Shown here in pieces: positions 10,328 through 51,021 of a DNA stretch of 64,000 nt. Position 1 is the first letter of the stretch. Each line of letters begins with the position of its first letter. Made by a program: the position numbers and the translations under genes. Below the pieces are notes generated by a model, which worked only from the letters and a program-made list of their open reading frames with translations, searched no databases and was not told the DNA's origin. The stretch lies in the NCBI RefSeq assembly GCF_058153355.1, contig NZ_CM177019.1. The stretch is one strand, 5' to 3'.

Positions 10328-10873
10328 GTGGACGATTTGACCGCACAAGCCTTGAAAGATTTTACTGCACGCTACTGCGATGCGTGGCATGAAGAGCATA
10401 AAAGCTGGCCGTTAAGTGAGGAACTGTACGGCGTTCCTTCACCGTGCATTATTTCAACTACTGAAGATGCCGTATACTGGCAACCCCAGCCGTTTACCGG
10501 GGAACAAAATGTAAACGCGGTTGAACGCGCTTTTGATATTGTGATACAACCCACAATTCATACCTTTTATACGACTCAGTTTGCCGGGGATATGCACGCG
10601 CAGTTTGGCGATATCAAACTGACATTGCTGCAAACCTGGAGTGAAGACGACTTCCGTCGGGTGCAGGAAAATCTGATTGGTCATCTGGTGACTCAGAAAA
10701 GGCTAAAACTGCCGCCCACGCTATTTATCGCGACGCTGGAAGAAGAGTTAGAGGTCATCTCGGTGTGTAATCTCTCCGGTGAAGTGTGCAAAGAGACGCT
10801 GGGAACACGCAAACGGACGCATTTAGCCTCAAATCTTGCGGAATTCCTTAATCAACTTAAGCCTCTTCTGTAA
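10328..10873 (+). CDS. syd: SecY-interacting protein Syd
   Basis: 181-aa ORF recognised as Syd; conserved neighbour of csrB. Confidence 0.9.
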
Positions 10874-10892
10874 TCCAAATACCCCATCTTGT

Positions 10893-10910
10893 TGTGAGAG
10901 ATCTCTTACA
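10893..10910. promoter_or_regulatory. 18-bp near-palindrome TGTGAGAGATCTCTTACA, candidate UvrY (BarA/UvrY) box upstream of csrB
   Basis: Near-perfect inverted repeat about 175 bp upstream of the csrB 5' end; matches my recollection of the UvrY-binding site at csrB. Confidence 0.5.
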
Positions 10911-11083
10911 GACTCTGTAGGAGATCGCCAGGAAATAAGCGAATACTTAAAAAGATAAGAATCGTTATTTTCATTTAAAATCAATATATTGCTTGTTAAT
11001 TCTTAACTTTCATATGAAATTTTCCTTAAGGCATTGTCTGTAAGCGCCTTGTAAGACTTCGCGAAAAAGACGATTCTATCTTC

Positions 11084-11449
11084 GTCGACAGGGAGTCAGA
11101 CAACGAAGTGAACATCAGGATGATGACACTTCTGAAGGACACACCAGGAGGGTGTTTCAGGGAAAGGCTTCTGGATGAAGCGAAGAGGATGACGCAGGAC
11201 GCGTTAAAGGACACCTCCAGGATGGAGAATGAGAACCGGTCAGGATGATTCGGTGGGTCAGGAAGGCCAGGGACACTTCAGGATGAAGTATCACATCGGG
11301 GTGGTGTGAGCAGGAAGCAATAGTTCAGGATGAACTATTGGCCGCAAGGCCAGAGGAAAAGTTGTTAAGGATGAGCAGGGAGCAACAAAAGTAGCTGGAA
11401 TGCTGCGAAACGAACCGGGAGCACTGTGAATACAGTGCTCCCTTTTTTT
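11084..11449 (+). ncRNA. csrB: CsrB small RNA (CsrA-sequestering)
   Basis: Begins GTCGACAGGGAGTCAGACAACG; about 18-20 repeated CAGGA(U)G/AGGA motifs at roughly 15-25 nt intervals; ends in a GC hairpin GGGAGCACTGTGAATACAGTGCTCCC followed by T7 (11418-11449). Confidence 0.92.
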
Positions 11450-11494
11450 ATTCCTGCTATCCTTCGCGGCAGTTTTTCTTATTGAGGTTGCTTT

Positions 11495-11824
11495 ATGACC
11501 ACTCATGACCGCGTTCGTCTCCAGTTGCAGGCGCTTGAAGCGTTACTACGTGAACATCAGCACTGGCGAAACGATGAACCCCAGCCGCATCAATTTAACA
11601 GTACCCAACCGTTCTTTATGGACACCATGGAACCACTGGAGTGGTTGCAGTGGGTGCTGATCCCGCGAATGCACGATTTGTTAGATAACAACCAGCCGTT
11701 ACCGGGCGCTTTTGCCGTTGCACCCTATTATGAAATGGCGCTGGCGACGGACCACCCGCAACGCGCGCTTATTCTGGCTGAGCTGGAAAAACTGGATGCT
11801 CTTTTTGCGGATGATGCGAGCTAA
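11495..11824 (+). CDS. yqcC: DUF446-family protein YqcC
   Basis: 109-aa ORF, conserved position upstream of truC with overlapping stop/start. Confidence 0.85.
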   Translation: MTTHDRVRLQLQALEALLREHQHWRNDEPQPHQFNSTQPFFMDTMEPLEWLQWVLIPRMHDLLDNNQPLPGAFAVAPYYEMALATDHPQRALILAELEKLDALFADDAS

Positions 11825-12606
11825 TGCTGGAAATACTCTATCAGGATGAATGGCTGGTTGCGGTAAATAAACCCTCCGGCTGGCTGGTTCACCGCAGCTG
11901 GCTGGATCGCGACGAGAAAGTAGTGGTCATGCAAACCGTGCGTGACCAGATAGGCCAGCATGTTTTTACTGCTCATCGTCTGGACCGACCAACTTCTGGT
12001 GTGTTGTTGATGGGATTATCCGGCGAGGCCGGACGGCTGCTGGCACAACAGTTTGAACAGCACCAAATCCAGAAACGTTACCATGCGATTGTGCGCGGCT
12101 GGTTGATGGAAGAAGCAGTTCTGGATTATCCACTGGTGGAAGAACTGGACAAAATCGCTGATAAATTCGCCCGCGAAGATAAAGGTCCACAGCCAGCGGT
12201 GACACATTATCGCGGTCTGGCGACCGTAGAAATGCCTGTAGCGACCGGACGTTACCCGACTACGCGCTACGGTCTGGTGGAACTGGAGCCGAAAACAGGA
12301 CGCAAGCATCAGCTCCGTCGCCATCTTGCCCACTTGCGCCATCCGATTATTGGCGACAGCAAACATGGTGATTTACGTCAGAATCGTAGCGGTGTTGAAC
12401 ATTTTGGCCTTCAGCGGTTAATGCTGCATGCCAGTCAGTTGTCATTGACACATCCATTTACTGGCGAGCCGCTGACTATTCACGCGGGCCTGGACGACAC
12501 CTGGATGCAGGCGTTATCACAATTTGGCTGGCGTGGTCTGCTTCCTGAAAATGAAAGGGTTGAGTTCAGCGCGCCATCGGGTCAGGATGGAGAGATAAGT
12601 TCCTAA
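11824..12606 (+). CDS. truC: tRNA pseudouridine(65) synthase
   Basis: 260-aa ORF, RluA-family pseudouridine synthase motifs ([12 protein letters not shown]). Confidence 0.9.
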
Positions 12607-12623
12607 TCCAGGGAGAAAACGGT

Positions 12624-13073
12624 ATGGCGGAAATTGGTATTTTTGTGGGCACCATGTACGGAAATTCACTGTTAGTGGCGGAAGAAGCGGAAGCAATTCT
12701 GACCGCGCTGGGCCACAAAGTAACGGTATTTGAAGATCCTGAATTAAGTGACTGGCTGCCCTATCAGGATAAGTTCGTTCTGGTGGTTACGTCCACGACC
12801 GGGCAGGGCGACCTTCCTGATAGCATTGTGCCGCTCTTTCAGGGAATTAAAGATACCCTGGGCTTCCAGCCGAATCTGCGTTATGGCGTGATTGCGCTCG
12901 GCGACAGTAGTTATGTGAATTTCTGCAATGGCGGCAAACAGTTCGATGCCTTGTTGCAGGAACAGAGCGCTCAGCGAGTTGGCGAAATGCTGTTGATTGA
13001 CGCCAGTGATAACCCGGAACCGGAAACGGAATCAAATCCGTGGGTCGAACATTGGGGCACGCTGTTGTCCTGA
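12624..13073 (+). CDS. yqcA: flavodoxin-like protein
   Basis: 149-aa ORF, flavodoxin fold signature ([10 protein letters not shown]... [10 protein letters not shown]). Confidence 0.88.
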
Positions 13074-13492
13074 AAAATTGCCGTTTTAAGCAAACTGAAT
13101 CGAATCTTTTCAGGCAAATGCCAGTAAAAACTGCTTCATAGCGCGGATTTTTACTGGCGTTTGCCTGGAGTCAAGCGATCCATTTCATACTCTTCTTTAT
13201 TTCTTCGTTTTAATCCTTCCTTTCTTGTTCTTGTTTTCATTTCCGTGAAGTGGATTCCACCGTCCAGGGCTAATGCCAAAATCGGGCCTCATTGAACGCA
13301 TTAATGTTGTGTTGTTGCACGGTGAGCCGCTATGGCGCGCTTTTTATACTGTTATTGCCAGATATAAACACGCGCCGTATTCGGCGAACGACCTATAAAA
13401 ACGGCAAAAAATACCCTACGTCACCTCTGATTTCCTGGCGATGTCGCAGTCCAGAGTGAGCGTGGCTAACGCGAATTTTCAGGAGTGCAACA

Positions 13493-14845
13493 ATGAGTTC
13501 TTTAAGTCAGGCTGCGAGCAGTGTGGAAAAACGCACGAATGCTCGTTACTGGATAGTGGTGATGTTGTTTATCGTCACATCCTTCAACTACGGCGACCGC
13601 GCTACGCTCTCTATCGCCGGTTCGGAAATGGCCAAAGATATCGGCCTTGATCCTGTGGGAATGGGCTATGTGTTCTCTGCTTTCTCATGGGCTTATGTTA
13701 TCGGGCAGATCCCTGGTGGCTGGTTGCTGGACCGTTTTGGTTCAAAACGCGTCTACTTCTGGTCGATCTTTATCTGGTCGATGTTTACCTTGCTGCAAGG
13801 CTTCGTCGATATCTTTAGTGGATTCGGCATTATCGTTGCCCTGTTTACGCTGCGCTTCCTGGTCGGGCTTGCTGAAGCGCCATCTTTCCCCGGTAACAGT
13901 CGCATTGTAGCGGCCTGGTTTCCGGCGCAGGAAAGGGGAACTGCAGTGTCTATTTTTAACTCCGCCCAATACTTCGCAACAGTGATCTTCGCGCCGATTA
14001 TGGGCTGGCTGACTCATGAAGTGGGTTGGTCACATGTCTTCTTCTTCATGGGCGGTCTGGGCATTGTCATCAGCTTTATCTGGTTGAAAGTCATCCATGA
14101 GCCAAATCAACATCCGGGCGTAAATCAGAAAGAGCTGGAGTACATCGCCGCGGGTGGTGCGCTGATCAATATGGATCAGCAAAACACCAAAGTTAAAGTA
14201 CCGTTCAGCGTGAAGTGGGGGCAGATCAAACAGCTGCTCGGGTCACGGATGATGATCGGCGTTTATATCGGTCAGTACTGTATCAACGCCCTGACTTACT
14301 TCTTTATTACCTGGTTCCCGGTTTATCTGGTGCAGGCACGCGGGATGTCGATTCTGAAAGCGGGCTTTGTGGCTTCCGTTCCGGCGGTTTGCGGTTTTAT
14401 CGGCGGTGTGCTGGGTGGGATTATTTCCGACTGGCTGATGCGCCGCACGGGATCGCTGAACATTGCGCGTAAAACACCGATCGTAATGGGCATGTTGCTG
14501 TCGATGGTGATGGTGTTCTGCAACTACGTCAACGTTGAGTGGATGATCATCGGCTTTATGGCGCTGGCCTTCTTCGGTAAGGGCATCGGGGCGCTGGGTT
14601 GGGCAGTAATGGCAGATACCGCGCCAAAAGAGATCAGCGGTCTTTCCGGTGGCCTGTTCAATATGTTTGGTAACATTTCCGGTATCGTCACGCCAATCGC
14701 AATTGGTTATATCGTTGGCACGACTGGCTCCTTTAATGGGGCGCTGATTTATGTTGGTGTTCATGCCCTAATCGCGGTACTGAGCTACCTGGTGCTGGTG
14801 GGCGATATCAAGCGTATCGAGCTGAAACCTGTTGCGGGGCAATAA
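13493..14845 (+). CDS. gudP: glucarate/galactarate transporter (MFS)
   Basis: 450-aa MFS ORF; first gene of gudPXD. Confidence 0.92.
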
Positions 14846-14846
14846 G

Positions 14847-16187
14847 ATGGCGACACAATCCAGTCCTGTTATTACTGATATGAAAGTCATTCCGGTGGCC
14901 GGGCATGACAGCATGTTGCTTAATATTGGTGGGGCACATAACGCATATTTCACCCGCAATATTGTGGTACTCACCGATAACGCCGGGCATACCGGTATTG
15001 GTGAAGCGCCCGGCGGAGAGGTGATTTATCAGACACTGGTCGATGCTATTCCGATGGTGCTGGGCCAGGAGGTCGCACGCCTGAATAAAGTGGTTCAGCA
15101 GGTGCATAAAGGTAATCAGGCTGCCGATTTTGATACCTTCGGCAAAGGTGCCTGGACTTTTGAATTGCGCGTTAATGCCGTGGCGGCGCTGGAAGCCGCC
15201 TTGCTTGACCTGCTAGGTAAGGTGCTGAATGTTCCGGTCTGCGAACTGCTAGGGCCAGGCAAGCAACGTGACGCTATTACCGTCCTCGGTTATCTGTTTT
15301 ATATCGGTGATCGGACTAAAACCGATCTTCCTTATCTGGAAAATACGCCGGGCAACCATGAGTGGTATCAGTTGCGCCACCAAAAAGCGATGAACAGCGA
15401 AGCCGTTGTGCGTCTGGCGGAAGCCTCACAGGATCGCTATGGCTTTAAAGATTTCAAACTTAAGGGCGGCGTGTTACCTGGCGAGCAAGAAATCGACACT
15501 GTTCGTGCATTGAAGAAACGCTTCCCGGATGCGCGAATTACCGTTGATCCCAACGGTGCATGGCTGCTTGATGAAGCCATTTCTCTGTGCAAAGGGCTGA
15601 ATGATGTTCTCACCTATGCGGAAGACCCGTGCGGCGCTGAGCAGGGTTTCTCCGGACGTGAAGTGATGGCGGAGTTTCGACGGGCGACCGGATTGCCCGT
15701 CGCGACTAACATGATCGCCACCAACTGGCGCGAAATGGGCCATGCGGTGATGCTCAATGCGGTAGATATTCCACTTGCCGATCCGCATTTCTGGACGCTT
15801 TCCGGTGCAGTCCGCGTGGCGCAACTTTGCGACGACTGGGGGCTGACCTGGGGCTGCCATTCCAATAACCACTTTGATATCTCTCTGGCGATGTTTACCC
15901 ATGTGGGTGCGGCGGCACCGGGTAATCCTACCGCTATCGATACCCACTGGATTTGGCAGGAGGGAGATTGTCGCCTGACCAAAAATCCGCTGGAGATTAA
16001 AAACGGAAAAATTGCCGTTCCTGATGCGCCCGGTCTGGGCGTGGAACTGGACTGGGAGCAGGTACAAAAGGCGCATGAGGCCTATAAACGTCTGCCTGGC
16101 GGTGCGCGTAACGACGCGGGCCCGATGCAGTACCTGATCCCCGGCTGGACCTTTGACCGTAAACGTCCCGTTTTCGGCCGTCATTGA
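14847..16187 (+). CDS. gudX: glucarate dehydratase-related protein (enolase superfamily)
   Basis: ORF 14832-16187 trimmed to MATQSSPV...; paralogue of the following gudD (shared [20 protein letters not shown] blocks). Confidence 0.9.
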
Positions 16188-16207
16188 TTTTGAAAAAGGA
16201 CATAGAT

Positions 16208-17548
16208 ATGAGTTTTCAATTTACGACGCCTGTTGTTACTGAAATGCAGGTCATCCCGGTGGCGGGCCATGACAGTATGCTGATGAATCTGAGTGGTGCA
16301 CACGCACCGTTCTTCACGCGTAATATTGTGATTATCAAAGATAATTCTGGTCACACTGGCGTAGGGGAAATTCCCGGCGGCGAGAAAATCCGTAAAACGC
16401 TGGAAGATGCAATTCCGCTGGTGGTGGGTAAAACGCTGGGTGAATACAAAAACGTTCTGACGCTGGTGCGTAATACATTTGCCGATCGTGATGCCGGCGG
16501 GCGCGGTTTGCAGACATTTGATTTGCGGACCACTATTCATGTGGTTACTGGGATAGAAGCGGCAATGCTGGATCTGCTGGGGCAGCATCTGGGGGTTAAC
16601 GTGGCATCGCTGCTGGGCGATGGTCAACAGCGTAGCGAAGTCGAAATGCTCGGTTATCTGTTCTTCGTCGGTAATCGCAAAGCCACACCGCTGCCGTATC
16701 AAAGCCAGCCGGATGACTCATGCGACTGGTATCGCCTGCGTCACGAAGAAGCGATGACGTCGGATGCGGTGGTGCGCCTGGCGGAAGCGGCATATGAAAA
16801 ATATGGCTTCAACGATTTCAAACTGAAGGGCGGTGTACTGGCCGGAGAAGAAGAAGCCGAATCTATTGTGGCACTGGCGCAACGCTTCCCGCAGGCGCGT
16901 ATTACCCTCGATCCTAACGGTGCCTGGTCGCTGAACGAAGCGATTAAAATCGGTAAATACCTGAAAGGTTCGCTGGCTTATGCAGAAGATCCGTGTGGTG
17001 CGGAGCAAGGTTTCTCCGGGCGTGAAGTGATGGCAGAGTTCCGTCGCGCGACTGGCCTGCCGACCGCAACCAATATGATCGCCACCGACTGGCGGCAGAT
17101 GGGCCATACGCTCTCGTTACAATCCGTTGATATCCCGCTGGCGGATCCGCATTTCTGGACGATGCAAGGTTCGGTACGTGTGGCGCAAATGTGCCATGAA
17201 TTTGGCCTGACCTGGGGGTCACACTCTAACAACCACTTCGATATTTCCCTGGCGATGTTTACCCATGTAGCCGCTGCTGCACCGGGTAAAATTACTGCTA
17301 TTGATACGCACTGGATCTGGCAGGAAGGCAATCAGCGTCTGACCAAAGAACCGTTTGAGATCAAAGGCGGGCTGGTACAGGTGCCGCAAAAACCAGGATT
17401 GGGCGTAGAAATCGATATGGATCAGGTGATGAAAGCCCACGAGCTGTATCAGAAACACGGGCTTGGCGCGCGTGACGATGCAATGGGAATGCAGTATCTG
17501 ATTCCTGGCTGGACGTTCGATAACAAGCGTCCGTGCATGGTGCGTTAA
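16208..17548 (+). CDS. gudD: D-glucarate dehydratase
   Basis: ORF 16184-17548 trimmed to the Met at 16208 ([10 protein letters not shown]...); enolase-superfamily sequence. Confidence 0.92.
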
Positions 17549-17556
17549 GACAGAAA

Positions 17557-17590
17557 ACCAAAACCGGCTCTGTCAGGAGCCGGTTTTTAC
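17557..17590. terminator. bidirectional intrinsic terminator between gudD and barA
   Basis: AAAACCGGCTC-TGTCAG-GAGCCGGTTTTT hairpin flanked by A-run and T-run between convergent genes. Confidence 0.75.
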
Positions 17591-17605
17591 TGGATAACAT
17601 ATTTA

Positions 17606-20362
17606 TTACCCAAGAATTTTGCTGGCTTCGCGCGCTACATTATCCATCTCGTCCAACAGTTCCAGCAGCTCCGGCTCCAAATCTTCTTCTTTAGTACCGC
17701 TGCGTAGCTGTTGTTCGATCAGTTGGCAGAGATTCTTCATACGCGGCACACCGCTATAGCCGCAACTGCCATGCAGTTTATGAATCAAATCAACCAGGCC
17801 TTCCGGGTTTTCTCCAACCAGCTGTTCCTCAACTTTGTTGCGAACTTCAGGCAGGAAATCGAGTAACATTTGCAGCATATCGCGCGCTAAATCGGTTTTT
17901 CCTGCTGCCTGGCGTAGTGCCAGTTGCCAGTCGAGGGTCGCATTCGGGTTCACCACAATTTCATTGACTTCGGGGGTCACGACGCGAGAGGAAATACCGC
18001 TGCCAGGCTTGTAGCGCAACAGCAAATTATGCAATCGTTCTTCTTCAATCGGTTTCGCCAGATAATCGCTCATCCCTGCGCCAAGCAGCTTCTCTTTTTG
18101 CCCGGCCATTGCATGCGCCGTTACCGCGATAACCGGCGTTTGTTGCTGATGGGGGAGCTGGTGGATGAGTTCGCAGGCCCGAATACCGTCCATGTCCGGC
18201 ATTTGAATATCCATTAAGATCAAATCGAACGGCATCTGTTTCGCCCGTTCAACCGCCTGATGCCCGCTATCGCAAAGTTCCACATGTTGCACCATATCTT
18301 CCAGCAATGCGCCGATAAGTTTCAGGTTAGCGGGGTTGTCATCAATCGCCATGACTGTCATTGCCAGCTTACTTTCATCGGTTACAGGCAAAAGCGTGTT
18401 TTGTTTGTGATGACAAAATTCCGTCAGGGCAGGGAACAGGCGCGTAGGTGTTAATGGTTTCAGCAGACACGCGCCGATACCATCTTGCTTAAGTTTTTCA
18501 GCATTGACTTGTGCATGGCAAGGAAGTGCCAGCATCAGAAAATCGGTCATCGATACCGCTTTCGCTAATCGCTCATGTTGCATTGTTAGCGGCTCGCGGA
18601 AGGTCACCGCAATGCCTAATAACATCATGTCGTAATGCGCGGGAGGCAGCGCGGAGAACGTTGGGCTATAAACCACTTCCAGCGGCGTTTCACTTAAAAT
18701 ATCCAGCGTGCATTGCGCTGCTGCGGAGTTTGGTTCGACATAGGCCAGGCGCTTGCCGGCGAGGCACTGGGTGGATGGCCCTTCGATAATAATGTTCGGA
18801 TTCAGATCGAGATTAATGTGGAACCAGAAAGTTGAACCGCGATTCGGCTGGCTATGGAACGAAATATCGCCGCCCATTTCATTAACCAGTTTTTGTGTAA
18901 TCACCAGCCCCAGCCCGGTGCCACCATGACGGCGGGAAATACTGGCATCAGCCTGTCGGAAGGCCTGGAATAAGCGCGATTGATCGCGTTCAGGAATACC
19001 AATGCCGGTATCCCGAATCTGCACTTCAATCTGCACTTTGGTATTACTCAGCGCACGTTTTTCTACCAGAATATCAATGTTGCCATTCTCGGTGAATTTA
19101 ATTGCATTCCCTACCAGGTTAGTGATGATTTGCTGTAATCGCAGTGGGTCGCCAATTACGTTATCGGGCACGTCGCTCTTAATATTGAGCGTCAGTTCCA
19201 GCCCTTTATCGTGAGAAGAATGTGCCAGCAGGGTAACGACTTCATCCAGCGTGCTGCGTAGTGGGAATGGAATACTTTCCAGAATCAGCTTACCTGCTTC
19301 CAGTTTCGAGAAGTCGAGAACATCATTAATAATTGCCAGCAAATTATTTGCCGAACGTTCAATCGTATTCAGGTGGTCGCGCTGCGTTGGCGTTAATTCT
19401 GTTTTCAGCGTCAGGCGGGTAAAGCCAATAACGCCATTGAGCGGAGTTCGCAGCTCGTGGGACATATTTGCCAGAAACTCAGACTTAATCCGCGCCGCTT
19501 CCTGGGCACGTTTTTTCGCCAGATCCAACTCAACGTTCTGAATTTCCATCTGCTCCAGCGTTTCACGCAGATCGGACGTCGCCTGGTCGATATTGTGTTG
19601 CATCTCTTCGTGATAAGCAGCCAGCGACATTGCCATCGAGTTGATGCCATTTTTCAGCATATCCAGCTCGCCGAGCATAAATCCTTCCACTCGGCTGTCG
19701 AGTTGTCCGCGACGGATACGGTCGACGGTATTTACCATGTTGCGAATTGGACCGGTTACATCACGCATGAGTCGCCAGCCAAAAATAAGCGCAATACCGA
19801 TACAAAACAGCATCATCACGCTGGAAATAAAGATCTCTTTATATTGCTGCAAGCGAACCGATTTAAGATCCAGCTCAAGCGCAATATATCCCAACATATT
19901 TTGACTATTTTTGGCATCGCTACTGGGCGATTCGTCGGGGGAGTAACTCTCAGAAATAATCGGCGTGCGGAGGATCATAATATCGCCGTCACGAGTGACA
20001 GTGAGCTGGCGAGGAAACGGCACGTTGCTGCCGAGCTGCATTGATGAGGGATCAAGATGAAAATTGGAGGTGACAAAGAGTCGGTTATTTTCATCATAAA
20101 CCGAAATCGCGCGAACAATATCGGAATGGCGACGATGCAGCACGCTTATTAACTGACCGATAGATTCGCGATTTTGCAGGCTCATGCCATATTCAGTAGA
20201 AACTGCAAGCGGCTCAATAATGCTGGCTCCGGCATCTTCCAGTTGACGCTGCAAGTCGTTATAGCGATGCACAACGAAAAAGATACTCAGCAATAAACCA
20301 ATAAGGACGGTCGGTGCCAGGATCAGAATCATCATGCGTGCGCGCAGGCTGTAGTTGGTCAT
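17606..20362 (-). CDS. barA: hybrid sensor histidine kinase BarA
   Basis: 918-aa ORF with HAMP, HisKA ([11 protein letters not shown]), receiver and HPt regions. Confidence 0.95.
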
Positions 20363-20418
20363 GGAGTTCCGTTATGGGACAATTAAGGTCACACTGTTAA
20401 ATTGAGAAAGTCTCGCCA

Positions 20419-21720
20419 ATGGCGCAATTCTACTCTGCAAAACGACGCACGACGACGCGTCAGATCATAACTGTTTCAGTCAACGACCTCGACTCTTTTG
20501 GTCAGGGCGTGGCACGACATAACGGCAAAGCGTTATTTATTCCTGGATTATTGCCACAGGAAAACGCGGAAGTTACTGTTACTGAAGATAAAAAACAGTA
20601 CGCCCGCGCTAAAGTCGTGCGCCGGTTAAGCGATAGCCCGGAACGCGAAACGCCACGCTGCCCTCATTTTGGCGTATGCGGTGGCTGTCAGCAACAACAC
20701 GCCAGCGAGGATTTACAGCAGCGAAGCAAAAGTGCGGCACTCGCCCGATTAATGAAACACGAAGTCTCTGAAGTGATCGCCGATGTTCCCTGGGGCTATC
20801 GCCGTCGCGCGCGTTTAAGTTTGAACTACTTACCGAAAACACAGCAACTTCAGATGGGGTTTCGCAAAGCTGGCTCCAGTGACATTGTCGACGTTAAACA
20901 ATGCCCCATTTTAGTGCCCCAACTTGAAGCATTGCTGCCCAAAGTCAGGGCATGCCTGGGCAGCTTACAAGCTATGCGCCATCTTGGTCATGTTGAACTG
21001 GTACAAGCAACCAGCGGTACGCTGATGATTTTGCGCCATACCGCACCGCTAAGTTCGGCAGATCGCGAAAAACTGGAACGCTTTTCGCATTCTGAAGGCC
21101 TGGATCTGTATCTCGCCCCCGATAGTGAGATACTCGAAACCGTCTCTGGTGAGATGCCCTGGTATGACTCAAACGGGTTGCGCTTAACTTTTAGCCCGCG
21201 CGATTTTATTCAGGTCAATGCGGGTGTGAACCAAAAAATGGTAGCGCGTGCGTTGGAATGGCTGGATGTACAACCTGAAGATCGCGTACTGGATCTGTTC
21301 TGCGGTATGGGCAACTTTACACTGCCATTGGCGACACAAGCTGCCAGTGTGGTGGGTGTAGAAGGCGTTCCGGCGCTGGTTGAAAAAGGCCAGCAGAATG
21401 CGCGTCTTAATGGCTTACACAATGTGACGTTTTATCACGAAAATCTTGAAGAAGATGTCACAAAGCAGCCGTGGGCGAAAAACGGCTTCGATAAAGTGTT
21501 GCTGGACCCGGCGCGAGCAGGTGCCGCAGGTGTTATGCAGCAAATTATAAAACTGGAACCTATTCGTATAGTTTATGTATCCTGTAATCCTGCAACGCTG
21601 GCTCGGGATAGCGAAGCGTTATTAAAAGCAGGATATACCATTGCGCGACTGGCGATGCTGGATATGTTCCCACACACGGGACATCTGGAATCGATGGTAC
21701 TTTTCTCGCGCGTTAAATAG
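20419..21720 (+). CDS. rlmD: 23S rRNA (uracil1939-C5)-methyltransferase
   Basis: 433-aa ORF recognised as RlmD/RumA (TRAM domain, Fe-S Cys cluster, SAM-MTase). Confidence 0.92.
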
Positions 21721-21767
21721 TTACGATTTGCCGATTTCGGCAGGTCTGGTCCCTAAAGGAGAGGACG

Positions 21768-24002
21768 ATGGTTGCGGTAAGAAGTGCACATATCAATAAG
21801 GCTGGTGAATTTGATCCGGAAAAATGGATCGCAAGTCTGGGTATTACCAGCCAGAAGTCGTGTGAGTGCTTAGCCGAAACCTGGGCGTATTGTCTGCAAC
21901 AGACGCAGGGGCATCCGGATGCCAGTCTGTTATTGTGGCGTGGTGTTGAGATGGTGGAGATCCTCTCGACATTAAGTATGGACATTGACACGCTGCGGGC
22001 GGCGCTGCTGTTCCCTCTGGCGGATGCCAACGTAGTTAGCGAAGATGTGCTGCGTGAGAGCGTCGGTAAGTCGGTCGTTAACCTTATTCACGGCGTGCGT
22101 GATATGGCGGCGATCCGCCAGCTGAAAGCGACGCATACTGATTCTGTTTCCTCCGAACAGGTCGATAACGTTCGCCGGATGTTATTGGCGATGGTCGATG
22201 ATTTCCGCTGCGTGGTCATCAAACTGGCAGAGCGTATTGCTCATCTGCGCGAAGTAAAAGACGCGCCGGAAGATGAGCGCGTACTGGCGGCAAAAGAGTG
22301 CACCAATATCTACGCGCCGTTGGCGAACCGTCTTGGGATTGGGCAACTGAAATGGGAGCTGGAAGATTACTGCTTCCGTTATCTCCACCCGACCGAATAC
22401 AAACGCATCGCAAAACTGCTGCATGAACGCCGTCTCGATCGCGAACACTATATCGAAGAGTTTGTCGGCCATCTGCGCGCTGAGATGAAAGCTGAAGGCG
22501 TTAAAGCTGAAGTGTATGGCCGTCCGAAACACATCTACAGTATCTGGCGCAAAATGCAGAAAAAGAACCTCGCCTTCGATGAGCTGTTTGATGTGCGTGC
22601 GGTACGTATTGTCGCCGAGCGTTTACAGGATTGTTATGCCGCACTGGGGATAGTGCACACTCACTATCGCCACCTGCCGGATGAGTTCGATGATTACGTT
22701 GCGAACCCGAAACCGAACGGTTATCAGTCTATTCATACTGTGGTGCTGGGGCCGGGCGGTAAAACCGTTGAAATCCAAATCCGCACCAAACAGATGCATG
22801 AAGATGCAGAGTTAGGTGTTGCTGCGCACTGGAAATATAAAGAAGGCGCGGCAGCTGGCGGTGCACGTTCGGGACATGAAGACCGAATTGCCTGGCTGCG
22901 TAAACTGATTGCGTGGCAGGAAGAGATGGCTGATTCCGGCGAAATGCTCGACGAAGTACGCAGCCAGGTCTTTGACGACCGGGTGTATGTATTTACGCCG
23001 AAAGGTGATGTCGTTGATTTGCCTGCGGGATCAACGCCGCTGGACTTCGCTTACCACATCCACAGTGATGTCGGACACCGCTGCATCGGGGCAAAAATAG
23101 GCGGGCGCATTGTGCCGTTCACCTACCAGTTGCAGATGGGCGACCAGATTGAAATTATCACCCAGAAACAGCCGAACCCCAGCCGTGACTGGTTAAACCC
23201 AAACCTCGGTTACGTCACAACCAGCCGTGGGCGTTCGAAAATTCACGCCTGGTTCCGTAAACAGGACCGTGACAAAAACATTCTGGCAGGGCGGCAAATC
23301 CTTGACGACGAGCTGGAACATCTGGGGATCAGCCTGAAAGAAGCAGAAAAACATCTGCTGCCGCGTTACAACTTCAATGATGTCGACGAGTTGTTGGCAG
23401 CGATTGGTGGCGGGGATATCCGTCTCAATCAGATGGTGAACTTCCTGCAATCACAATTTAATAAACCGAGTGCCGAAGAGCAGGATGCCGCCGCGCTGAA
23501 GCAACTTCAGCAAAAAAGCTATACGCCACAAAACCGCAGTAAAGATAACGGTCGGGTGGTGGTTGAAGGTGTCGGCAACCTGATGCACCACATCGCGCGT
23601 TGCTGCCAGCCGATTCCTGGAGATGAGATTGTCGGCTTCATTACCCAGGGGCGCGGTATTTCAGTACACCGCGCCGATTGCGAACAATTGGCGGAACTGC
23701 GCTCCCATGCGCCAGAACGCATTGTTGACGCGGTATGGGGCGAGAGCTACTCCGCCGGATATTCGCTGGTGGTCCGCGTGGTGGCTAATGATCGTAGTGG
23801 GTTGTTACGTGATATCACGACCATTCTCGCCAACGAGAAAGTGAACGTGCTTGGCGTTGCCAGCCGTAGCGACACCAAACAGCAACTGGCGACCATCGAC
23901 ATGACCATTGAGATTTACAACCTGCAAGTGCTGGGCCGCGTGCTGGGTAAACTCAACCAGGTGCCGGATGTTATCGACGCGCGTCGGTTGCACGGGAGTT
24001 AG
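21768..24002 (+). CDS. relA: GTP pyrophosphokinase ((p)ppGpp synthetase I)
   Basis: 744-aa ORF recognised as RelA. Confidence 0.96.
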   Translation: MVAVRSAHINKAGEFDPEKWIASLGITSQKSCECLAETWAYCLQQTQGHPDASLLLWRGVEMVEILSTLSMDIDTLRAALLFPLADANVVSEDVLRESVGKSVVNLIHGVRDMAAIRQLKATHTDSVSSEQVDNVRRMLLAMVDDFRCVVIKLAERIAHLREVKDAPEDERVLAAKECTNIYAPLANRLGIGQLKWELEDYCFRYLHPTEYKRIAKLLHERRLDREHYIEEFVGHLRAEMKAEGVKAEVYGRPKHIYSIWRKMQKKNLAFDELFDVRAVRIVAERLQDCYAALGIVHTHYRHLPDEFDDYVANPKPNGYQSIHTVVLGPGGKTVEIQIRTKQMHEDAELGVAAHWKYKEGAAAGGARSGHEDRIAWLRKLIAWQEEMADSGEMLDEVRSQVFDDRVYVFTPKGDVVDLPAGSTPLDFAYHIHSDVGHRCIGAKIGGRIVPFTYQLQMGDQIEIITQKQPNPSRDWLNPNLGYVTTSRGRSKIHAWFRKQDRDKNILAGRQILDDELEHLGISLKEAEKHLLPRYNFNDVDELLAAIGGGDIRLNQMVNFLQSQFNKPSAEEQDAAALKQLQQKSYTPQNRSKDNGRVVVEGVGNLMHHIARCCQPIPGDEIVGFITQGRGISVHRADCEQLAELRSHAPERIVDAVWGESYSAGYSLVVRVVANDRSGLLRDITTILANEKVNVLGVASRSDTKQQLATIDMTIEIYNLQVLGRVLGKLNQVPDVIDARRLHGS

Positions 24003-24097
24003 TCTTACATAGCTGGATATGGCGTCAGCCGTATCCAGCGATATCTTTTACTCGAAGGTATTACACCTGACAGACCCGCAATTTTCAGGACATTCTA

Positions 24098-24889
24098 ATG
24101 AATCAAATCGACCGTTTGCTCACTATTATGCAGCGTCTTCGCGACCCGGAAAACGGCTGCCCGTGGGATAAAGAGCAGACATTTGCCACCATTGCACCTT
24201 ACACCCTTGAAGAAACCTACGAAGTGCTGGACGCCATCGCCCGTGAAGATTTTGACGATCTGCGCGGTGAGCTCGGCGATCTATTGTTTCAGGTGGTGTT
24301 TTACGCGCAAATGGCTCAGGAAGAAGGGCGCTTTGATTTTAATGATATCTGCGCCGCGATTAGCGATAAGCTAGAACGTCGCCATCCACATGTTTTTGCA
24401 GGCAGTTCTGCCGAAAACAGTAATGAAGTGCTTGCCCGTTGGGAGCAAATCAAAACCGAAGAGCGCGCGCAGAAAGCGCAGCATTCGGCGCTGGACGATA
24501 TTCCTCGTAGTTTACCGGCTTTAATGCGTGCGCAAAAAATCCAGAAACGTTGCGCCAACGTTGGCTTCGATTGGACGACGCTTGGTCCGGTAGTCGATAA
24601 AGTCTACGAAGAGATCGACGAGGTGATGTACGAGGCGCGGCAGGCTGTTGTCGACCAGGCTAAACTGGAGGAGGAAATGGGTGACCTGCTGTTTGCCACG
24701 GTCAACATGGCCCGCCATTTAGGGACAAAAGCAGAGATTGCACTACAAAAAGCCAATGAAAAATTCGAGCGCCGTTTTCGCGAAGTGGAGCGTATTGTTG
24801 CCGCGCGTGGACTGGAAATGACAGGTGTTGACCTCGAAACAATGGAAGAAGTCTGGCAACAGGTAAAACGGCAGGAAATTGATCTCTAA
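24098..24889 (+). CDS. mazG: nucleoside triphosphate pyrophosphohydrolase
   Basis: 263-aa ORF recognised as MazG; starts only 95 bp after the relA stop. Confidence 0.93.
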   Translation: MNQIDRLLTIMQRLRDPENGCPWDKEQTFATIAPYTLEETYEVLDAIAREDFDDLRGELGDLLFQVVFYAQMAQEEGRFDFNDICAAISDKLERRHPHVFAGSSAENSNEVLARWEQIKTEERAQKAQHSALDDIPRSLPALMRAQKIQKRCANVGFDWTTLGPVVDKVYEEIDEVMYEARQAVVDQAKLEEEMGDLLFATVNMARHLGTKAEIALQKANEKFERRFREVERIVAARGLEMTGVDLETMEEVWQQVKRQEIDL

Positions 24890-28181: not shown

Positions 28182-29608
28182 TAATGCCGATCAGTTAAGG
28201 ATCAGTTGACCGATCCAGTGGCTGTGTAAGAATCCGGAAACGCTCACTTGTTTCCGGATTTTTTTATGCACATTGGACAGGCTCTTGATCTGGTATCCCG
28301 TTACGATTCTCTGCGTAACCCACTGACTTCTCTGGGGGATTACCTCGACCCCGAACTCATCTCTCGTTGCCTTGCCGAATCAGGTACTGTAACGCTACGC
28401 AAGCGCCGTCTTCCCCTCGAAATGATGGTCTGGTGTATTGTTGGCATGGCGCTTGAGCGTAAAGAACCTCTTCACCAGATTGTGAATCGCCTGGACATCA
28501 TGCTGCCGGGCAATCGCCCCTTCGTTGCCCCCAGTGCCGTTATTCAGGCCCGCCAGCGCCTGGGAAGTGAGGCTGTCCGCCGCGTGTTCACGAAAACAGC
28601 GCAGCTCTGGCATAACGCCACGCCGCATCCGCACTGGTGCGGCCTGACCCTGCTGGCCATCGATGGTGTGTTCTGGCGCACACCGGATACACCAGAGAAC
28701 GATGCAGCCTTCCCCCGCCAGACACATGCCGGGAACCCGGCGCTCTACCCGCAGGTCAAAATGGTCTGCCAGATGGAACTGACCAGCCATCTGCTGACGG
28801 CTGCAGCCTTCGGCACGATGAAGAACAGCGAAAATGAGCTTGCTGAGCAACTTATAGAACAAACCGGCGATAACACTCTGACGTTAATGGATAAAGGTTA
28901 TTACTCACTGGGACTGTTAAATGCCTGGAGCCTGGCGGGAGAACACCGCCACTGGATGATACCTCTCAGAAAGGGAGCGCAATATGAAGAGATCAGAAAA
29001 CTGGGTAAAGGCGATCATCTGGTGAAGCTGAAAACCAGCCCGCAGGCACGAAAAAAGTGGCCGGGACTGGGAAATGAAGTGACAGCCCGCCTGCTGACCG
29101 TGACGCGCAAAGGAAAAGTCTGCCATCTGCTGACGTCGATGACGGACGCCATGCGCTTCCCCGGAGGAGAAATGGCGGATCTGTACAGTCATCGCTGGGA
29201 AATCGAACTGGGATACAGGGAGATAAAACAGACGATGCAACTGAGCAGGCTGACGCTGAGAAGTAAAAAGCCGGAGCTTGTGGAGCAAGAGCTGTGGGGT
29301 GTCTTACTGGCTTATAATCTGGTGAGATATCAGATGATTAAAATGGCGGAACATCTGAAAGGTTACTGGCCGAATCAACTGAGTTTCTCAGAATCATGCG
29401 GAATGGTGATGAGAATGCTGATGACATTGCAGGGCGCTTCACCGGGACGTATACCGGAGCTGATGCGCGATCTTGCAAGTATGGGACAACTTGTGAAATT
29501 ACCGACAAGAAGGGAAAGGGCCTTCCCGAGAGTGGTAAAGGAGAGGCCCTGGAAATACCCCACAGCCCCGAAAAAGAGCCAGTCAGTTGCTTAACTGACT
29601 GGCATTAC
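28182..29608 (+). mobile_element. IS4 insertion sequence, complete
   Basis: About 1427 bp, bounded by imperfect 18-bp terminal inverted repeats (TAATGCCGATCAGTTAAG at left; reverse complement of the right end is TAATGCCAGTCAGTTAAG) and carrying a single transposase ORF. Confidence 0.9.
28266..29594 (+). CDS. insG: IS4 transposase
   Basis: ORF 28248-29594 trimmed to [16 protein letters not shown]...; 442-aa DDE transposase recognised as IS4 InsG. Confidence 0.9.
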
Positions 29609-50604: not shown

Positions 50605-50868
50605 ATATTGCCGGATAAAATAAACGCCTCTGTCAGAAATGATGGGGGCGTTTTTATTTTGCGAGCCGCATTCCGGCATTTAAACGTGAATATAGCAGGG
50701 GAAATCAACAGTTATAGAATGGCGTCGGGTGCTTGAGGCTGTCTGGTGTTGAGCATTCGCGAGGTTCCAGATGGACAAAAGCCCCAGGCGATATATCTAT
50801 CAACCTGAGGCTTACGTTCGAACCCAAACAATTCGAATGTTAGTCTCTTCTTTGCAGGGAGGCAAGAC

Positions 50869-51021
50869 ATGCTGACAAAATATGCCCTTGTGGCAATCAT
50901 CGTACTGTGTTGTACAGTACTGGGATTCACGCTGATGGTAGGCGACTCGTTGTGTGAGTTGAGTATCAGAGAACGTGGTATGGAGTTTAAGGCAGTTCTC
51001 GCTTACGAACCGAAGAAGTAG
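50869..51021 (+). CDS. hokX: Hok/Gef-family small membrane toxin (50 aa)
   Basis: Not in the ORF track (under 60 aa). Translation [50 protein letters not shown] shows the Hok pattern (N-terminal TM helix, conserved LCE...R..G..E..A...AYE). Followed by GC hairpin CGCGGGGGTAAAACCCCGCG and a T-run. Locus name from my recollection of hokX/sokX between cysH and cas3 in K-12. Confidence 0.7.

Follow-up and report, generated by a model that had tools for sequence, protein, structure and literature searches.

The csrB locus of an Escherichia coli chromosome and its inherited linkage to barA

The segment at 10893–20362 of the analysed DNA (the window, 64,000 nucleotides of one strand) is almost certainly the canonical Escherichia coli csrB locus on an E. 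coli chromosome, with a BarA-UvrY mechanism of the K-12 type and an inherited csrB-barA synteny. The region is matched by 5425 of 5426 complete E. coli genomes, and no result of the analysis speaks against the identification. The csrB gene, its UvrY- and IHF-dependent promoter and BarA are already known and are textbook biology, as the first-pass annotation of this DNA had recognised. The mechanism is established in K-12 and is extended to the strain of the window from near-identity.

Identity and structure of csrB

In the Rfam scan, the CsrB family (RF00018) matches the plus strand at 11093–11452 with 377.1 bits (E=1e-109), more than five times the gathering score of 71. The match spans model positions 1–356 of 356 and is untruncated. 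The first-pass annotation had named a missing Rfam call for CsrB as the outcome that would refute it, and the scan gives the reverse. CsrC is absent from the window in the Rfam scan. Together with the alignment to K-12 MG1655 (b4408), this match defines csrB, a CsrA-sequestering small RNA, as a 369-nt gene at 11084–11452 on the plus strand. The first-pass annotation had proposed csrB here from the letters, and both lines of evidence bear out its presence; the proposed length of about 366 nt is close to the actual one. The ends of the gene are set by the K-12 MG1655 alignment plus the K-12 annotation, with the 5' end placed by homology only. The K-12 counterpart interval (2924156–2924524 of NC_000913.3) carries the annotation csrB b4408, lies in the same syd-yqcC locus and has the same 369-nt length.

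The csrB sequence differs from b4408 by 5 substitutions in 369 nt, and all 5 are structure-neutral or pairing-improving. Beside GGA motifs, K-12 CAGGA is replaced by AAGGA in a linker and AGGAU by AGGAG in a hairpin loop. The remaining changes affect pairing: an A/G mismatch becomes an A-U pair, a C-G pair becomes U-G in a 2-bp stem, and one terminator pair that is G-U in K-12 is A-U in the window. K-12 csrB shares with the window the UvrY box, the additional half-site, the IHF site, 22 GGA motifs, the RNase E entry site and the terminator.

The gene contains 22 GGA, 14 AGGA and 9 CAGGA motifs. Vakulskas et al. 2016 number 22 sites in CsrB, the same as the GGA count here (PMC5027483). The first-pass estimate of 18–20 GGA-containing motifs was right that many are present and slightly too low. 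Per 369 nt, the window has a median of 5 GGA motifs and a maximum outside csrB of 16. Dinucleotide shuffles of the csrB sequence contain 15.2 +/- 2.5 GGA motifs (maximum 25), and enrichment over these shuffles is only moderate because the composition of csrB is itself G- and A-rich; the remainder of the window is the more informative null.

In the Rfam consensus, a GGA sits in the loop of all 11 non-terminator hairpins, and in the ViennaRNA minimum-free-energy fold 10 of the 22 motifs are strictly inside hairpin loops. The long-range pairs in this single-sequence fold are probably spurious, and the structure is judged from the Rfam consensus and covariation in preference to it. Compensatory changes occur at 26 of the 63 predicted pairs in a 34-sequence alignment. 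CsrA binding is demonstrated for K-12 CsrB in literature summarised in two of the papers cited here (PMC4682653, PMC5027483), and the CsrB of the window would be expected to sequester multiple CsrA dimers in the same way.

The terminator scan finds an intrinsic terminator at 11417–11449 on the plus strand, with an 11-bp stem (7 GC pairs), a 4-nt GAAU loop and a T7 tract. Its predicted energy is -21.1 kcal/mol (-20.7 in K-12), in agreement with the strong terminator described in the first-pass annotation. In four of the stem pairs, compensatory changes are seen between species. Just 5' of the terminator, at 11407–11416 on the plus strand, lies the unstructured GAAACGAACC segment, the 'necessary cleavage site' of RNase E. 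Positions A327 and A331 of Vakulskas et al. 2016 (PMC5027483) map to 11410 and 11414 of the window. This segment is nearly invariant among the 34 orthologues.

The upstream activation region and BarA

The 18-bp inverted repeat TGTGAGAGATCTCTTACA occurs exactly at 10893–10910, centred at -183/-182 from the csrB start at 11084, and 0 chance matches are expected from 100 shuffles. Compared with its own reverse complement, the repeat agrees at 16 of 18 positions. Zere et al. 2015 used DNase I footprinting and ChIP-exo to map where UvrY binds at E. coli csrB, and that site has the same letters and position as the one at 10893–10910 (PMC4682653). The first-pass annotation was therefore right that the near-palindrome fits a UvrY site, but its word 'candidate' understates a sequence that equals an experimentally footprinted one. 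Binding of UvrY~P, shown for the identical K-12 sequence, would be expected here as well. An extra UvrY-like half-site, TGTAGGAGA, is found by the half-site scan at 10916–10924 on the plus strand, 5 bp downstream of the inverted repeat, and Zere et al. report the same additional half-site in E. coli and Salmonella (PMC4682653).

The UvrY box is conserved in all 35 upstream regions compared (34 orthologues and the window). It is exact in 26 and has 1–3 mismatches in 9, and its centre falls within -180.5 to -185.5 in every one. Four species carry the box in reverse-complement form (TGTAAGAGATCTCTCACA in place of TGTGAGAGATCTCTTACA). The reversed form fits a site bound by a dimer, and these natural variants suggest that the box may function in either orientation.

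A pattern match places an IHF consensus, AATCAATATATTG (pattern WATCAANNNNTTR), at 10979–10991 on the plus strand, starting at -105, downstream of the UvrY box and ahead of the promoter. In the study of Zere et al., a putative IHF site separates the two stretches where UvrY crosslinks, and ihf mutants lose CsrB about 10-fold (PMC4682653). The aligned flanks of csrB hold 5 more substitutions relative to K-12, of which 3 cluster in or beside the NNNN spacer of the IHF site; the consensus is kept. Two TGTAAG half-sites, at -45 and -34, are found by the half-site scan at 11039–11055 on the plus strand. They lie in the promoter-proximal stretch, -56 to +25, where UvrY crosslinks in vivo, as seen by ChIP-exo with no in vitro footprint (PMC4682653). 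A consensus scan finds no good sigma-70 promoter in 10700–11600, and the csrB promoter is therefore non-consensus, with its -10 and -35 elements located by homology to K-12 only. The lack of a good sigma-70 match fits an activator-dependent csrB promoter.

The barA gene, encoding the tripartite sensor histidine kinase that acts as the kinase for UvrY, lies at 17606–20362 on the minus strand (918 aa), the position given in the first-pass annotation. The assignment is made from Pfam domains and from identity to K-12 BarA, which is 99% over 918 aa. All domains are above the cut-offs: sCache_4 (31–177), HAMP (198–248), HisKA (293–357), HATPase_c (404–518), Response_reg (670–780) and Hpt (828–910). 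Their order is that of a periplasmic sensor, HAMP, HisKA, HATPase_c, receiver and Hpt. Phosphotransfer from BarA to UvrY would follow from orthology; uvrY lies outside the window. As in K-12, barA adjoins rlmD-relA, with relA 1.4 kb beyond barA.

The open reading frames between csrB and barA are yqcC, truC, yqcA, gudP, gudX and gudD (11495–17548, plus strand), named from the RefSeq annotation of syntenic genomes. These genes do not belong to the Csr circuit. The barA gene is on the strand opposite to the gud operon and converges with it. The gud operon fills a variable gap and is missing from this position in E. albertii, Pluralibacter and others.

By the K-12 mechanism, BarA would autophosphorylate on short-chain carboxylates and donate the phosphate to UvrY, whose gene lies elsewhere. 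Phosphorylated UvrY would bind as a dimer to the inverted repeat at 10893–10910, centred at -183/-182, and an IHF bend at about -105 would bring UvrY to the weak promoter with its TGTAAG half-sites near -35. The resulting 369-nt CsrB RNA would end at the strong intrinsic terminator. With roughly 22 GGA motifs, of which half lie in short hairpin loops, this RNA would bind many CsrA dimers and draw CsrA off its mRNA targets. Turnover would begin when RNase E cuts the GAAACGAACC segment just 5' of the terminator; CsrA on the last GGA sites would shield this segment and CsrD would lift the shielding.

Linkage of csrB and barA across genomes

The gene order in the window is syd-csrB-yqcC-truC-yqcA-gudPXD-barA-rlmD-relA, with 6153 bp between the 3' end of csrB (11452) and the stop of barA (17606). 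The two genes are near each other, as the first-pass annotation stated, but its 'within 6 kb' is marginally optimistic for a gap of 6.15 kb. At least 80% of 10893–20362 is held in one place in 5413 of 5426 complete E. coli genomes. Across 34 species-level loci (33 Enterobacteriaceae and Pantoea stewartii), csrB lies 1669–9455 bp beyond barA, with a median of 7.3 kb. The position of csrB near barA in P. stewartii, the outgroup, is confirmed by Rfam. In all 34 loci yqcC precedes csrB, and syd follows wherever the fetched flank reaches. Kulkarni et al. 2006 noted the csrB-syd context (PMC1488887); it is the only related statement found, and no earlier one on csrB-barA linkage was found in the literature. 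The order inherited in the Enterobacteriaceae and Erwiniaceae is barA, a variable gap and yqcA-truC-yqcC-csrB-syd.

CsrB is not found within 10 kb of barA in Yersinia, Rahnella, Rouxiella, Edwardsiella, Moritella and Ca. Pantoea persica. A search by nhmmer with E. coli csrB gives no match near barA in Yersiniaceae, Hafniaceae or Moritella, and a rerun of Rfam on six nhmmer-negative loci, as a sensitivity check, also gives no CsrB there. The fetched flanks are 10 kb, and five Erwiniaceae loci (L034, L035, L045, L054 and L055) end in or just past yqcA, truC or yqcC. In these five, csrB is likely linked at about 10–11 kb. Proximity of csrB and barA is best read as inherited synteny that is dispensable and not demonstrably functional, because it is kept across 34 loci yet absent in Yersinia, Rahnella, Rouxiella, Edwardsiella and Moritella. 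The significance that the first-pass annotation implied for this proximity is unsupported beyond conserved synteny.

It is unlikely that the csrB-barA-relA cluster, which lies within 13 kb, is kept by selection and not by mere inheritance. Such selection could reflect a need for recombination to transmit the sensor and its main output RNA as a unit, or co-translational membrane insertion of BarA might tether csrB near the source of UvrY~P and speed the response. All Enterobacteriaceae loci with sufficient flank, and P. stewartii, show the linkage despite repeated turnover in the barA-yqcA gap, where the gud operon is present, partial or absent and the distance varies from 1.7 to 9.5 kb. By our own arithmetic, the probability that csrB falls by chance about 6 kb or less from a particular gene of a 5-Mb genome is about 0.25%, a figure computed after the result was seen. 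Also adjacent is relA, and its product ppGpp is an activator of csrB transcription in work that Zere et al. cite (PMC4682653). Against selection, the genera listed above and Ca. Pantoea persica lack CsrB within 10 kb of barA. The csrB gene of Yersinia still adjoins syd (PMC1488887), and an account of that genus has BarA-UvrY still controlling CsrB (PMC6153318). Moreover, csrC, unlinked between yihA and yihI (PMC1488887), takes the same UvrY~P input (PMC4682653), and uvrY is likewise unlinked to csrB-barA. The entire block is equally conserved, including the unrelated housekeeping genes truC, queF and rlmD, and ordinary synteny therefore suffices to explain the linkage. Nothing in the evidence points to a circuit that needs csrB and barA to be close. 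If the cluster were selected, one possible reason is that the csrB promoter is thereby placed beside the source of UvrY~P, another that the sensor and its RNA have to travel together.

Highly improbable is the reading that the GGA-rich interval is a coding sequence or a degenerate relic with no functional small RNA. Minus-strand open reading frames of 62 and 71 aa do overlap csrB (11026–11214 and 11291–11506), but both are unannotated in K-12 and in the nearest RefSeq genome. A structure-aware RNA model gives 377 bits for this interval, whose promoter, terminator and RNase E entry site are all intact. Substitutions across the 34 species keep base pairs and not reading frames, and many indels are not multiples of three. 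The two frames are rejected as real genes on their lack of annotation, the base-pair-preserving changes and the frame-breaking indels.

Related systems and significance

The csrB gene of Salmonella enterica, activated by SirA/BarA, is an orthologue in another genus. It has an identical 18-bp inverted repeat at -182/-181 and an IHF site (PMC4682653) and, as in the window, is flanked by yqcC and syd (PMC1488887). CsrC of E. coli is a second CsrA-sequestering small RNA that receives BarA-UvrY input through an upstream inverted repeat (PMC4682653). It differs from CsrB in its family and in its locus, yihA-yihI, which is unlinked to barA (PMC1488887). Its upstream site is a weaker palindrome, TGTGAGACATTGCCGATA, with no IHF requirement (PMC4682653).

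The orthologue of P. stewartii scores 203 bits and keeps an exact UvrY box. Its RNA is about 310 nt long and is without the central part of E. coli CsrB. GacS and GacA are the orthologues of BarA and UvrY. Under their control, RsmB of Pectobacterium and Erwinia and RsmY and RsmZ of Pseudomonas titrate RsmA/CsrA with multiple GGA hairpins. RsmB belongs to the same Rfam family as CsrB. RsmY and RsmZ are shorter, come from other families and sit at other loci (PMC1488887).

In the window, csrB is placed between syd and yqcC. The PGAP/RefSeq record of the nearest complete genome contains syd and yqcC and has no csrB feature, in line with the remark in the first-pass annotation that an element with no open reading frame is easy to miss. 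Because that record is without a csrB feature, csrB is invisible to an ORF-based reading. Such a reading leaves unseen a global regulator that a covariance-model scan picks up immediately.

As a discovery the locus carries little weight, since few regulatory parts of E. coli are better characterised than csrB, its promoter and BarA. A comparative by-product of modest value is that the UvrY box keeps its place at about -183 from genus to genus, whichever way round it lies. The csrB-barA neighbourhood dates at least to the common ancestor of the Enterobacteriaceae and Erwiniaceae, with a gap that varies from 1.7 to 9.5 kb.

The csrB gene and its RNA

The Rfam scan of the whole window returns two matches. 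The first is CsrB (RF00018) at 11093-11452 (+), a match of 377.1 bits (gathering score 71) over the entire model; the other is sok (RF01794). When the K-12 csrB region is aligned to the window, the MG1655 gene (b4408, annotated as an ncRNA, 2924156-2924524) maps to 11084-11452, a length of 369 nt. The two RNAs differ at only five positions, and these differences leave the CsrB structure undamaged. Two affect bases adjoining a GGA motif, one turns an A/G mismatch into an A-U pair, one turns C-G into U-G in a 2-bp stem, and one turns a terminator-stem G-U into A-U, with a predicted terminator energy of -21.1 kcal/mol in the window and -20.7 kcal/mol in K-12. Both comparisons agree with the first-pass annotation, which had placed CsrB here. 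Because 10700-11600 is matched by 5425 of 5426 complete E. coli genomes (top identity 99.7%), the window is E. coli chromosome.

The window CsrB contains 22 GGA triplets, with 14 occurrences of AGGA and 9 of CAGGA. This count equals the 22 numbered GGA sites described for CsrB, the last of which lies within the terminator hairpin (Vakulskas et al. 2016, PMC5027483). All 11 non-terminator hairpins of the Rfam consensus structure carry a GGA in the loop. Across the window, the number of GGA triplets per sliding 369 nt has a median of 5 and a maximum of 22 at csrB and 16 elsewhere. Shuffles of csrB itself already yield 15.2 +/- 2.5, so the enrichment is partly compositional. The second-densest region (28830-29531, +; 16 per 369 nt) sits inside minus-strand genes for TPM-domain proteins, as assigned by synteny, and has no match in the whole-window Rfam scan; its GGA density is probably compositional.

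When 34 orthologues are aligned and the alignment is folded, compensatory double changes are found in 26 of 63 predicted pairs, including pairs of the GGA hairpins and the terminator. The 3' third is near-invariant, including the segment GAAACGAACC (11407-11416, +). Within this segment is the RNase E 'necessary cleavage site', defined at A327 and A331 (PMC5027483), which are positions 11410 and 11414. The terminator follows at 11417-11449 (+); its 11-bp stem is capped by a GAAU loop and followed by T7. The nearest genome (NZ_CP027579.1, complete) has no csrB feature in its RefSeq/PGAP annotation at positions 10885-11253 of the scanned locus, whereas K-12 annotates csrB as an ncRNA; the earlier remark that the element is easy to miss therefore holds.

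The UvrY box

The sequence TGTGAGAGATCTCTTACA occurs once in the window, at 10893-10910, with 0 chance matches expected. The identical 18-mer is the UvrY-P site of E. coli csrB, identified by DNase I protection and ChIP-exo crosslinking and centred at -183/-182 (Zere et al. 2015, PMC4682653). With 11084 as the transcript start, the window box is centred at -182.5. What had been proposed as a candidate box is thus the experimentally defined site. The other elements described in PMC4682653 can also be located in the window: the partial repeat TGTAGGAGA (10916-10924), 5 bp downstream of the box; the IHF consensus AATCAATATATTG (10979-10991), which starts at -105; and a pair of TGTAAG half-sites (-45 and -34) within the promoter-proximal region to which UvrY crosslinks in vivo. 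A generic sigma-70 scan of 10700-11600 finds no consensus promoter, which fits an activator-dependent csrB promoter.

When the region upstream of csrB is compared among the window and the 34 orthologues (35 in all), the 18-mer is exact in 26 and has 1-3 mismatches in the other nine. Its centre lies between -180.5 and -185.5 in all 35. Four loci (L023, L044, L046 and L029) carry the box as its reverse complement, with the asymmetric positions swapped and the distance to csrB unchanged. This box is TGTAAGAGATCTCTCACA in L023 and L044; the boxes of L046 and L029 each carry one additional mismatch. The pattern suggests that the site may be functional in both orientations; a symmetric dimer reading it in either direction would account for the reversed boxes.

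barA and neighbouring sequence

The barA ORF (17606-20362, -) encodes 918 aa, and its stop codon lies 6153 bp from the csrB 3' end. The product has sCache_4, HAMP, HisKA, HATPase_c, Response_reg and Hpt domains, all above Pfam cut-offs, and 99% identity to K-12 BarA, bearing out its earlier identification. As in K-12, rlmD-relA lies on one side and convergent gudD on the other. The stop codons of gudD and barA are 57 bp apart (17549-17605), compared with 231 bp in both K-12 and the nearest relative; the ~175 bp absent from the window include a REP-like palindrome, GCCGGATAAGGCGTTAACGCCGCATCCGGC.

The segment 10893-20362 (9.47 kb) has a best identity of only 98.3% among 5426 complete E. coli genomes, compared with 99.7% for the csrB sub-region. 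Identity to the nearest genome ranges from 95% to 99.8% across 500-bp windows, a pattern that suggests a recombination mosaic.

Only 95 bp (24003-24097) separate relA (21768-24002) from mazG (24098-24889). The mazEF toxin-antitoxin pair, which lies between these genes in K-12, is absent there in the window strain and in strain 2013C-4282. Together, csrB, barA and relA span less than 13 kb (11084-24002); according to work cited in PMC4682653, ppGpp, the RelA product, activates csrB transcription. A hok/sok-type toxin-antitoxin locus is present at 50727-51021 (+), with sok at 50727-50884 (111.5 bits) followed by a 50-aa Hok/Gef-family ORF at 50869-51021. The gene order of NZ_CP027579.1 places this locus between cysH and a type I-E CRISPR-Cas system, on the cas3 side.

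The csrB-barA block across species

At least 80% of 10893-20362 is found in one place in 5413 of 5426 E. coli genomes. Synteny was scanned in one genome per GTDB species, anchored on BarA with 10-kb flanks, within which csrB was located by nhmmer and neighbouring genes by tblastn. The block, in the order rlmD-barA, a variable gap and yqcA-truC-yqcC-csrB-syd-queF, is present in 34 loci, which comprise all Enterobacteriaceae with enough flank and Pantoea stewartii, whose CsrB is confirmed by Rfam (203 bits). The distance from barA to csrB in these loci is 1669-9455 bp (median 7.3 kb). The barA-yqcA gap contains gudDXP in most loci; some have just one gud gene there, and the gap is nearly or wholly empty in E. 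albertii, Pluralibacter gergoviae and strain RIT691. Five other Erwiniaceae loci have yqcA, truC or yqcC at the extreme end of the flank, so csrB is probably just past it. By nhmmer and Rfam, CsrB is not found within 10 kb either side of barA in Rahnella, Rouxiella, Yersinia nurmii, Edwardsiella, Moritella and Ca. Pantoea persica. In Yersinia, Photorhabdus and Pectobacterium, csrB is listed beside syd by Kulkarni et al. 2006 (PMC1488887), who make no mention of barA.

Several loci differ in other respects. The yqcC-csrB spacing is roughly 40-130 bp except in Pluralibacter gergoviae (L022, 14441-15497) and Klebsiella sp. BIGb0407 (L032, 11968-12942), which have ~1 kb of extra DNA. One metagenome-assembled genome of an uncultured Enterobacteriaceae (L029, 15983-17029) contains two tandem full-length csrB copies between yqcC and syd (251 and 256 bits in Rfam), each with its own UvrY-like box at ~-183. 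Duplication of csrB is known in Vibrio; we know of no description in the Enterobacteriaceae. The species-representative genome NZ_JAATUR010000008.1, labelled E. coli, has only ~92% identity to the window across the region, well below normal for E. coli, and is probably a member of a cryptic Escherichia lineage. Adjacency of rlmD and barA is kept even in the Moritella loci, and in the Alcanivorax locus rlmD is within ~1 kb of barA.

Weak selection might keep csrB and barA linked across these loci, an explanation we consider quite improbable. The csrC gene, located between yihA and yihI (PMC1488887), takes the same UvrY-P input (PMC4682653) but, unlike the barA-linked csrB, is sited elsewhere. 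The regulator is therefore diffusible, and linkage is unnecessary for the circuit. The simplest reading of the csrB-barA proximity is inherited synteny. The first-pass observation is confirmed and its interpretation supported; the csrB element itself has already been fully characterised at the molecular level. The minor additions are the variability of the gap, the orientation of the UvrY box and the pair of tandem csrB copies in a single metagenome-assembled genome.
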